This document shows positions 1,104 to 1,678 of a stretch of DNA of 4,282 bases, one piece after another (positions within the stretch are counted from its first letter, which is position 1; each line of letters starts with the position of its first letter). The notes under the pieces were generated by a model that was given only the letters and a program-made list of their open reading frames with translations, made no database searches and was not told the origin of the DNA. The translations under genes and the position numbers were made by a program. Location of the stretch: the IMG/VR virus record IMGVR_UViG_2585427751_000006, positions 1 to 4,282 of that record. One strand, written 5' to 3'. This DNA is from a virus (Duplodnaviria > Heunggongvirae > Uroviricota > Caudoviricetes).

Positions 1104-1272
1104 TTGCACGAATTACATCAGAAAAGCACGCGTTCCATAACTGCATAGCGGATGAATCACCTGCTGTATGAAAAGAGGTAAAGTTACCCCTGGTGGATGT
1201 CATTGCTGCAATTGTAATATCAGCTGCAATTCGCGCAGCCTGTAACTTTGGGTCTGTGGTTAGTTTATCCAT
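1066..1272 (-). CDS. possible 68-aa hypothetical protein, convergent with and overlapping the 3' end of the 903-1103 ORF
   Basis: ATG at 1272-1270 (minus) preceded by AGGAAAA. No family recognised; coding status uncertain. Confidence 0.2.
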   Translation of the reverse strand: MDKLTTDPKLQAARIAADITIAAMTSTRGNFTSFHTAGDSSAMQLWNACFSDVIRAISESVDLREPQK

Positions 1273-1379
1273 TTTTCCTGCCTGAACAGATATATCTCTG
1301 CTTTACAGGAGACCGGGGAATATCATAGGATACGCCACGAGCTCGAAGTAAAGCATTGATGCAAGTTTTTACAGATTGA

Positions 1380-1415
1380 CCCAGCATAGTTCCAGCTATG
1401 CTGGGTTTCCCTTTT
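1380..1415 (+). terminator. terminator-like hairpin (10-bp perfect stem CCCAGCATAG/CTATGCTGGG, 6-nt loop) followed by TTTCCCTTTT
   Basis: Perfect inverted repeat 1380-1389 and 1396-1405. The 3' tail 1406-1415 is T-rich but interrupted by CCC. Orientation is plus strand, since the minus-strand downstream flank is not U-rich. No plus-strand ORF ends nearby. Confidence 0.4.
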
Positions 1416-1485
1416 ATGTAGTATCCTGTTGATTTGAAACATACTACATATGCGCGCGATCCTACCTTCACTGGATAAAAAGTCA

Positions 1486-1503
1486 ATAAAATGATCATTT
1501 TAT
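1486..1503. promoter_or_regulatory. 18-bp perfect palindrome ATAAAATGATCATTTTAT centred on a GATC (Dam) site; candidate dimeric regulator binding site
   Basis: The sequence 1486-1503 equals its own reverse complement. GATC at 1493-1496 sits at the dyad, with another GATC 8 bp downstream (1504-1507). Confidence 0.4.
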
Positions 1504-1610
1504 GATCGTTTTCACACCCTAAGTCTTCGTTTTCTTTTAGTAAATAATCACCTCCCTGAATCATTGTTGATGACTTTTCAATCTATTTGTTGTATCAATT
1601 AAACACATCG

Positions 1611-1635
1611 AATCGATCGTTTTTGTCGATCGATT
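1611..1635. promoter_or_regulatory. inverted repeat AATCGATCG-N7-CGATCGATT carrying two GATC sites, in the com-mom upstream region; candidate operator overlapping a putative promoter
   Basis: Perfect 9-bp arms at 1611-1619 and 1627-1635, spacer TTTTTGT. GATC at 1615-1618 and 1628-1631. A possible -35 TTGTCG (1623-1628) and -10 TATCAT (1648-1653) are 19 bp apart; this promoter assignment is speculative. Confidence 0.4.
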
Positions 1636-1678
1636 AGGCGAGAAAGATATCATCAACAAAGCAGGAGGTTATGCGGCC

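Follow-up and report, generated by a model that had tools for sequence, protein, structure and literature searches.

A probable promoter–leader element, conserved before small genes beside the com–mom control region of Mu-like Escherichia coli prophages

The DNA analysed here (the window; 4,282 nucleotides (nt), positions 1–4,282 of IMG/VR record IMGVR_UViG_2585427751_000006) is the right end of a Mu-like Escherichia coli prophage, and this report concerns the 575-base-pair (bp) stretch at 1104–1678, directly upstream of com and mom. An earlier note had described this stretch as AT-rich, poor in open reading frames (ORFs) and carrying an orphan plus-strand terminator. The stretch is probably better understood as a small gene plus a compact divergent control region than as one empty region. 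The arrangement that we favour, and hold to be reasonably probable, is a conserved leftward promoter (P_L) and a leader with three hairpins (HP1, HP2 and HP3) standing before a real small gene for a 68-amino-acid (aa) protein; the hairpin flagged earlier is HP2, the middle one of the three, and is possibly also the terminator of an antisense RNA. The features concerned are as follows.

1459–1486, minus strand: P_L, predicted leftward sigma-70 promoter (promoter scan and conserved position)
~1273–1486, minus strand: predicted promoter and ~180-nt leader with three hairpins
1415–1450, minus strand: HP1, stem-loop with which the predicted leftward transcript would begin (inverted repeat I9)
1379–1406, both strands considered: HP2, middle hairpin of the three (inverted repeat, terminator scan and folding)
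1296–1362, minus strand: HP3, long imperfect leader hairpin (RNAalifold consensus)
1302–1331, plus strand: P_as, predicted rightward sigma-70-like promoter (promoter scan, TTTACA-18-TAGGAT)
1066–1272, minus strand: 68-aa small protein gene (MDKLTTDPKLQ...), under purifying selection; cargo gene of the predicted leftward transcript
1265–1564, minus strand: 99-aa ORF (‘orfN’; RefSeq pseudogene at 1289–1564, ECs4996 in strain Sakai, phrog_26524)

As proposed, P_L would start leftward transcription near 1452, and the RNA would run through HP1 (1450–1415), the GC-rich HP2 (1406–1379) and HP3 (~1362–1296) before reaching the 68-aa gene (1272–1066). A cis-antisense RNA would pair with the leader, lowering translation or stability of the leftward mRNA, and the promoter–leader cassette would sit back to back with the com–mom control region.

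Among 5,426 complete E. coli genomes, 233 contain related copies of this prophage end, some of them as many as four; prophage Sp18 of O157:H7 strain Sakai is one such copy. Sakai shares the HP1, HP2 stem-loop and HP3 of the window, and across window positions 1294–1700 its coordinates (NC_002695.2) are those of the window plus 5077026. Comparisons below also draw on more distant Mu-like prophages, represented by locus L030, and on the still more distant loci L066 and L077.

A predicted structured leader behind a conserved promoter-like site

P_L consists of a −35 element, TTGACT (1486–1481), and a −10 element, TAGGAT (1464–1459), separated by a 16-nt spacer, and lies ~190–220 nt upstream of the com start codon. 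Promoter-like hexamers stand at the homologous position in the relatives (TTGACT-16-TAGGAT in the window and L005, TTGACT-16-TAAGAT in L030 and TTGACG-16-TATAAT, an 11/12 match, in L066), and they stay while the spacers diverge between the window, L030 and L066. GATC, the Dam site, overlaps the −10 element in the E. coli alleles (TAGGAT followed by C, 1458–1464) and in L030 (TAAGATC), with no such overlap in L066 (TATAATC); two more GATC sites, at 1493 and 1504, lie just upstream of the −35 element. The overlap and the two nearby sites hint that P_L may be methylation-sensitive like the mom promoter.

The leader itself (1255–1452, minus strand) folds at −58.6 kcal/mol (z = −4.3), a value reached by none of 200 shuffled sequences, and its RNAalifold consensus contains the three hairpins. 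Across six lineages, 92.2% of cells in this three-hairpin structure are paired, as against 33–48% when the partners are slid, and seven cells carry double-sided changes, a count attained in none of 500 shuffles. The hairpins are thus kept through sequence change, with a conserved promoter upstream and a real ORF with a Shine–Dalgarno sequence (SD) and ATG downstream, as in a structured 5′ leader.

HP1 is formed by the arms TATGTAGTAT and ATACTACATA around a 16-nt loop. Its arms (ATGTnGT/ACTACAT) are conserved in L030, L066 and L077, where the loop is different. One-sided changes at two pairs give G–U variants, and in L066 the hairpin is stable on the leftward strand only (−14.7 versus −1.3 kcal/mol); these two properties point to a leftward RNA. 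HP3 has an invariant outer helix (UGCUUUAC/GUAAAGCA), an apical UAUCC/GGAUA helix and an anti-SD-like stretch in its 3′ arm. Its helices 3 and 4 are 91–94% paired, with two pairs changed on both sides, and the hairpin is retained in all six lineages folded singly. Searches of Rfam (E ≤ 1) with the window and four related loci returned no family for the element, the output being a weak Esr41-like match elsewhere and chance matches.

The middle hairpin keeps its structure while its sequence is replaced

The earlier note had reported a strong hairpin with a T-rich tail in plus orientation, and this is borne out. The arms of HP2 (1379–1389 and 1396–1406) are fully complementary over 11 bp, six of them GC pairs, around a 6-nt loop. 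A terminator scan extends the stem to 13 pairs at 1378–1407, followed by TCCCTTTTAT on the plus strand; the T-rich tail there is TTTCCCTTTTAT, at 1407–1418. On the plus strand HP2 thus has the stem-loop of an intrinsic terminator (11 perfect pairs, 13 by the scan; loop of 4–6 nt). The interval 800–1900 holds five terminator-like sites, compared with 0.9 ± 1.1 in shuffled sequences. A 38-nt segment containing HP2 folds at −21.4 kcal/mol on the plus strand and at −18.9 kcal/mol on the minus strand (z = −5.0; none of 500 shuffles as good).

HP2 lies within a hypervariable cassette of ~50 nt (~1362–1414). Between the E. coli alleles A, B and C this cassette shows 51–69% identity, and the sequence on either side of it 96–100%. 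Eight versions (A, A2, B, C, C2, C3, D and E) were found, each folding into a hairpin of 10–14 predicted pairs from different stems: ACCCAGCATAG/CTATGCTGGGT in A, GGTCCAGATAG/CTATCTGGACC in B, GACCCGGTAG/CTACCGGGTC in D and one with CCCCC/GGGGG in E. HP2 changes in sequence and retains its structure. The cassettes measure 52, 46, 54, 45 and 48 nt, and among the four alleles other than A only B departs from the length of A by a multiple of three; this is about the chance expectation for non-coding DNA. Allele A is the commonest (~174 records), followed by C (~29 records) and B (7 genomes).

At eight loci (L004, L018, L020, L021, L026, L027, L068 and L077) a unit of ~80 nt, comprising HP2, the linker and part of an HP3 arm, is tandemly duplicated. 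Two independent duplications join unlike alleles, A with a C-like version in one lineage and an E-like with a D-like version in another. That such duplications arose at least twice and joined different alleles suggests a local hotspot for unequal recombination at HP2. A dispersed repeat was considered for the HP2 element and rejected: a probe for allele B matches one place in each of seven genomes.

The genes behind the leader

The left third of the stretch is filled by the 68-aa ORF, which overlaps the stop of the 99-aa ORF by 8 nt. Between three lineages its ratio of non-synonymous to synonymous substitution rates (dN/dS) is 0.10–0.26, lowest in its own frame among the same-strand frames, and a weak SD (AGGA) stands at 1279–1276. 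Judged by this pattern of substitution, the 68-aa ORF is a real gene. The description of the stretch as ORF-poor accordingly holds for the plus strand and for ~1273–1678, and fails for the minus strand at 1066–1272. The protein is charged, and its single-sequence AlphaFold2 model is a two-helix hairpin (mean predicted local distance difference test (pLDDT) score 72.3) that matched no fold among viral structures at E ≤ 0.001. A search of 5.8 billion proteins gave just two close homologues, which makes it an orphan.

The ATG of the 68-aa ORF aligns with that of the zinc-ribbon gene in other alleles, sharing ATGGATAAA. The window and a sister lineage carry a distinct module (867–1293), and their homology to the zinc-ribbon type breaks at ~1294. 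The gene behind the leader varies among the relatives: most carry a 53–56-aa CPxC...CPxC zinc ribbon, the window the 68-aa helical protein and L066 a 101-aa ORF (phrog_3941). The zinc-ribbon ORF is under purifying selection and has its own strong SD and ATG (AAGGAG, 8 nt, ATG). It is intact in 23 of 25 loci regardless of the state of the 99-aa ORF, and has a standalone 53-aa homologue, P0036 (43% identity), at the same position relative to com.

In L030, P0036 is divergent from com across 390 nt with no called gene; this interval is DNA-homologous to window positions 1290–1500, and the 99-aa frame is broken in it. In L030, as in L066 and L077, the predicted promoter, HP1, HP2, HP3 and then an SD and ATG are kept. 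Going by these alignments, the conservation in L030, L066 and L077 is at the nucleic-acid level. Because the promoter–leader module recurs in Sp18-type Mu-like prophages before three unrelated cargo genes, it behaves as an expression or control cassette for small accessory genes.

A candidate antisense RNA

On the plus strand, the TTTACA-18-TAGGAT site of P_as is a 9/12 match, with a putative start near 1338; HP2 lies ~40 nt downstream of that start. The hexamers and their spacing occur at the homologous position in three relatives, L005, L030 and L066, and the spacer sequence differs in L066. With a promoter-like site conserved upstream of HP2, a cis-antisense RNA of ~75–80 nt running from P_as to HP2 is plausible, and HP2 would probably then end that RNA as well. 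For this predicted RNA, taken as 79 nt, the folding energy is −25.2 kcal/mol (z = −3.6); the RNA would lie opposite leader positions ~+38 to +114. The earlier suggestion of a small RNA gains from this shared promoter-like site; the accompanying terminator tail, on the other hand, passes the scan only in alleles A and B.

The 99-aa reading frame

The longest ORF of the stretch, the 99-aa frame at 1265–1564, spans P_L, HP1, HP2 and HP3. RefSeq annotates 1289–1564 as a pseudogene ‘missing C-terminus’ and recognizes in O157:H7 an ‘intact’ protein of 154 aa (ECs4996 in Sakai) that ends in a CPAC...CPAC zinc ribbon. On that account the frame encodes a protein, or did so until recently, the 154-aa form being complete and the C-terminus having been lost here; the hairpin would be incidental coding sequence and its variants would reflect decay. 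A match to phrog_26524 (E = 1.3e-43, positions 1–90 of a 135-position profile), an ORF of 99–154 aa in 20 of 29 loci and a frame that alleles A and B keep across a cassette differing by 6 nt speak for it, as does a slight third-position excess over the first 150 nt, where 8 of 17 variable sites are of that kind.

We nevertheless find this account distinctly improbable. As the earlier note had observed, no SD precedes the frame: the upstream sequence is AAAGTCATCAACA, and GAAAAGTCATCAACA before the ATG at 1564 contains no purine-rich SD. That ATG, moreover, lies upstream of the conserved promoter P_L. Over the 29 loci the frame has eight lengths (14, 56, 82, 99, 106, 135, 153 and 154 aa), and of its variable sites 13 of 35 fall at third codon positions, which is no excess. 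A frame switch and an early stop interrupt it in L030 and no ORF exists in L066, both of which keep the DNA motifs. The 154-aa and 135-aa forms owe their different C-termini to a single piece of DNA translated in two frames. Outside near-identical E. coli DNA the family has no members: residues 1–97 retrieved near-identical E. coli alleles alone in a word-indexed search of 5.8 billion proteins, and an HMMER scan of 1.84 billion representative proteins yielded no credible diverged homologue, so that conserved homologues under purifying selection, which would have spoken for translation, were not found there. The AlphaFold2 model has a mean pLDDT of 48.9 and no confident fold. Pfam, NCBIfam and PADLOC gave nothing beyond weak zinc-ribbon noise for the 99-aa and 154-aa ORFs, as also for the 68-aa ORF and a neighbouring 66-aa ORF. 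Two candidates were set aside: a 671-aa, internally repetitive protein matching residues 1–97, which looks spurious, and a supposed likeness to a HicB-type antitoxin fold, which had neither a confident model nor support from the family searches.

Given its eight lengths, the lack of a third-position excess, of diverged homologues, of an SD and of a confident fold, the 99-aa ORF looks spurious. From its sequence it looks like a by-product of AT-rich, stop-poor DNA and not a conserved protein-coding gene, in agreement with the earlier view of it as chance read-through. The zinc-ribbon part, with an SD and ATG to itself, stays intact where the upstream ORF is broken, and the extra G that ‘fuses’ both ORFs in Sakai merely shifts its start from MDKEPV to MKEPV. 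In the annotated 154-aa ECs4996 (L003/L076, NC_002695.2:5078126–5078590), a real zinc-ribbon gene of ~55 aa (MKEPVCPAC...CPAC) thus appears to have been extended spuriously at its N-terminus.

Other accounts of HP2

HP2 could instead be maintained mainly as a plus-strand intrinsic terminator or insulator, shielding com–mom from transcription out of the accessory cluster, the 903–1103 gene or an internal promoter. This account is compatible with a promoter–leader element, differing from it in which function maintains HP2, and as the principal explanation we regard it as unlikely. The scan calls HP2 a terminator in the window and in allele B; a stem that varies in sequence and keeps its structure is typical of terminators, and duplicated hairpins would be harmless or even helpful. 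Expression of mom is cytotoxic and guarded at several levels (PMC3378877), and in phage Chuche the corresponding position, before the com control region, is occupied by a strong canonical terminator. Against this, in C, D and E a CGCCC, TCCC or CACCC separates the stem from a short TTTAT, and D and E fail the scan. Little read-through would be expected in most relatives, since DUF826, the plus-strand gene closest upstream, is followed by a terminator ~470 nt earlier. No terminator lies between gin and the mom promoter in Mu; insulation at this spot, as proposed earlier, is therefore not a general requirement. The related proposal that the hairpin terminates a long 3′ untranslated region of the 903–1103 ORF is weakened: most relatives keep the hairpin and lack the module containing that ORF, so HP2 did not evolve in that role. 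Termination or insulation also leaves HP1, HP3 and the conserved leftward promoter unaccounted for.

Quasi-palindrome correction by template switching is an established mutational process, and HP2 might be a quasi-palindrome at the DNA level with no RNA function, in which template switching and unequal recombination match the arms and generate the hypervariability and the duplications. Both arms do change together, the stems are perfect or nearly so, folding energy is about equal on the two strands for most alleles, and the independent tandem duplications joining different alleles fit the same process. We give this account little credence: HP2 keeps its position and size in lineages that are 46–68% identical in the neighbouring promoter–HP1 block, bulged and G–U-containing versions persist uncorrected, HP1 and HP3 also keep their pairing through changes, and the element, as the allele B probe indicates, is not a dispersed repeat. 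A more elaborate and quite speculative account makes the cassette a specificity determinant, the leader hairpin and a complementary antisense hairpin first meeting through their loops. Diversifying selection would then replace the cassette so that co-resident Mu-like prophages avoid cross-regulating each other’s accessory genes, an idea to which we attach very low probability; the conserved flanks would serve as recombination handles, which would also account for the duplications joining two alleles. Its logic is that of the RNAs governing plasmid copy number and incompatibility, and phages P1 and P7 offer a further parallel in their c4 immunity RNA. A prediction that polylysogens hold unlike hairpin alleles was not borne out, no exclusion pattern being seen: in many two-copy genomes both copies match neither the B nor the C probe, and genome 2010C-3347 has one B copy and a second, non-B copy.

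Several observations weigh against the promoter–leader reading itself. Promoter-like sites are no commoner than in shuffled sequences (2 found, 2.4 expected), so the weight of the promoter calls lies wholly in their conservation in a few lineages, and the conservation of P_as may be structural, as its hexamers coincide with HP3 helices. Covariation statistics are thin, there being only about six independent lineages: counted by pair, double-sided changes occur at 5 pairs compared with 2.4 ± 1.3 in shuffles, and 23 of 500 shuffles equal that number. HP2 folds about equally on both strands, which leaves strand asymmetry informative only for HP1 in L066. When the predicted antisense target was blocked, accessibility of the SD went down in two alleles, was about unchanged in two and rose in one, a mixed outcome for an SD-sequestering switch. 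The leader evidently tolerates large changes, since the HP2 tandem duplications persist in several lineages, and alleles A and B keep a frame of 99–135 aa open. The T tail is weak in C, D and E, where CCC comes after the stem. A literature search gave no RNA-seq, 5′-end or 3′-end evidence for either RNA, and the Hfq crosslinking survey of Sakai lists one Sp18 RNA, EcOnc37, in another intergenic region.

The com–mom control region

The right part of the stretch and the genes beyond it comprise the following features.

1487–1678, strand not applicable: AT-rich com–mom control region, with paired CGATCG (Dam) sites
1611–1635, strand not applicable: palindrome AATCGATCG-N7-CGATCGATT containing two CGATCG sites (inverted repeat I15, direct repeat D2)
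1679–1879, plus strand: com, for the Com zinc-ribbon translational activator (RefSeq annotation of identical DNA)
1833–2570, plus strand: mom, overlapping com (RefSeq annotation of identical DNA)

The AT-richness reported earlier is confirmed, GC content being 0.335–0.405 over 1301–1600 and ~0.46–0.55 in the flanks. Further GATC sites lie at 1458, 1493 and 1504, and both L030 and phage Chuche retain the CGATCG palindrome motif. Around the palindrome stands an inverted repeat of 10 perfectly matched bp, TTGTTGATGA/TCATCAACAA (1564–1573 and 1650–1659), its right arm ending 3 nt before the SD of com. The com product has tblastn matches to Com of Mu, D108 and SfMu. Behind com, L007 and L030 carry a gene for a cytosine-type DNA methylase in place of mom. 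Host genes on the minus strand follow mom, including a 303-aa ORF that we take to be yaeF, followed presumably by the end of proS.

The Mu mom promoter region has three GATC sites, two of them within PvuI (CGATCG) sites, and this cluster is where Dam and OxyR act (PMC3378877). A divergent promoter, momP2, overlaps the mom promoter of Mu, as Sun & Hattman (1998) are cited in PMC3378877. The stretch resembles the Mu region in lying directly upstream of com–mom in a Mu-type phage, in its clustered GATC/CGATCG sites and in leftward transcription beside the mom promoter region, which is reported for Mu in PMC3378877 and is predicted in the window. It differs in that gin of Mu ends 20 nt before the mom promoter region, with no leftward gene and no leader hairpins, whereas P_L would serve its own structured leader and small gene, away from the com start. 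Mu DNA showed no similarity to this region of the window.

In Chuche (Escherichia phage, PP925824.1; L074, 1979–2390), a hok/sok-type module and the strong terminator stand immediately before the region that controls com. Rfam assigns the module to sok (45.7 bits, E = 1.5e-7), and its annotation reads ‘MokW-like host killing protein’. The slot upstream of com seems to collect small antisense-controlled accessory genes.

Other features of the prophage end

To the left of the 68-aa gene, the plus-strand ORF at 903–1103 (66 aa) has 11 synonymous and 3 non-synonymous changes (dN/dS 0.07–0.12). The 66-aa and 68-aa genes (903–1103, plus; 1066–1272, minus) are convergent orphans, both under purifying selection, whose 3′ ends overlap by 38 nt, so their transcripts must overlap. 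The statement that 1104–1678 contains no plus-strand ORF of any size is right for long ORFs and too strong for short ones: ORFs of 25 aa (1168–1245), 30 aa (1193–1285) and 26 aa (1248–1328) lie within it, and one of 47 aa (1028–1171) enters from the left.

Farther left, the interval 211–354 separates the SASA/DUF6645 gene, which ends at 210, from the DUF1378 gene at 355. It holds a strong hairpin, GCCGCCGGT...ACCGGCGGC, which is bordered by runs of A and of T and looks like a two-way terminator. The weak Esr41 match of Rfam falls here (minus strand, 216–298; 22 bits, E = 0.54). Tree et al. (2014) reported the Hfq-bound candidate small RNA (sRNA) EcOnc37 in Sp18 (Sakai 5077340–5077410, minus strand); by approximate coordinate mapping it falls at window positions 211–354, away from HP2.

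The prophage end of the window is 100% identical over 850–1900 to that of E. coli strain 102651 (L002), where it occupies another chromosomal site and abuts flagellar genes, as is expected of a transposable phage. DNA patterns were scanned against one genome per species: the first gave no match, and the hits of a looser second lay in unrelated phyla and were due to chance. A search of the literature turned up no study of this locus, and a 2026 paper mentioning Sp18 concerns a different sRNA.

Relation to known regulatory systems

The predicted element can be set beside type I toxin–antitoxin modules of the hok/sok kind (Rfam RF01794), with which it shares a prophage-borne small ORF, a long structured leader, a convergent internal promoter (predicted here) and an antisense RNA of ~70–80 nt; a hok/sok-type module also fills the same slot in Chuche. 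Unlike hok/sok, it gives no relevant Rfam hit in the window or in the relatives L003, L030 and L066 (E ≤ 1). Its cargo is a zinc ribbon, a charged two-helix 68-aa protein or a 101-aa protein and not a short hydrophobic toxin, and changes between relatives that conserve the leader; the antisense RNA is a prediction.

P22 sar, lambda OOP and IS10 RNA-OUT are cis-antisense RNAs transcribed from face-to-face promoters. Here the convergent promoters would be ~114 nt apart, with a short stem-loop antisense RNA likewise ending in the sense leader. There is no sequence relationship, and the predicted antisense RNA misses the ribosome binding site, which lies ~60 nt past its 5′ end. HP2 is like intrinsic terminators in its GC-rich stem of 10–13 bp, short loop, T-rich plus-strand tail in the window and free stem sequence; it differs in that the tail is CCC-interrupted and short in most alleles, and in lying inside an opposite-strand leader rather than at a gene end. 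The annotated family of phrog_26524, RefSeq WP_115801860.1 and ECs4996 differs from a protein family in comprising near-identical E. coli alleles with shifting frames; its real coding part appears to be the zinc-ribbon ORF only, which is absent from the window.

Implications

The promoter–leader element would be a modest regulatory element and no large surprise for phage biologists. If the proposal is right, the gene or pseudogene now annotated in ~230 of the 5,426 complete E. coli genomes, ECs4996 of the reference enterohaemorrhagic strain Sakai among them, needs replacing by a non-coding promoter–leader element and a real small gene, for a 55–56-aa zinc-ribbon protein in most prophages and the 68-aa protein here. 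The leader would constitute a new structured RNA family, absent from Rfam, and the element appears to control small accessory (‘moron’) genes beside the tightly guarded com–mom operon. The alleles of HP2, with the same structure, different sequences and near-identical flanks, would then be a natural experiment in what a working leader hairpin or terminator requires.

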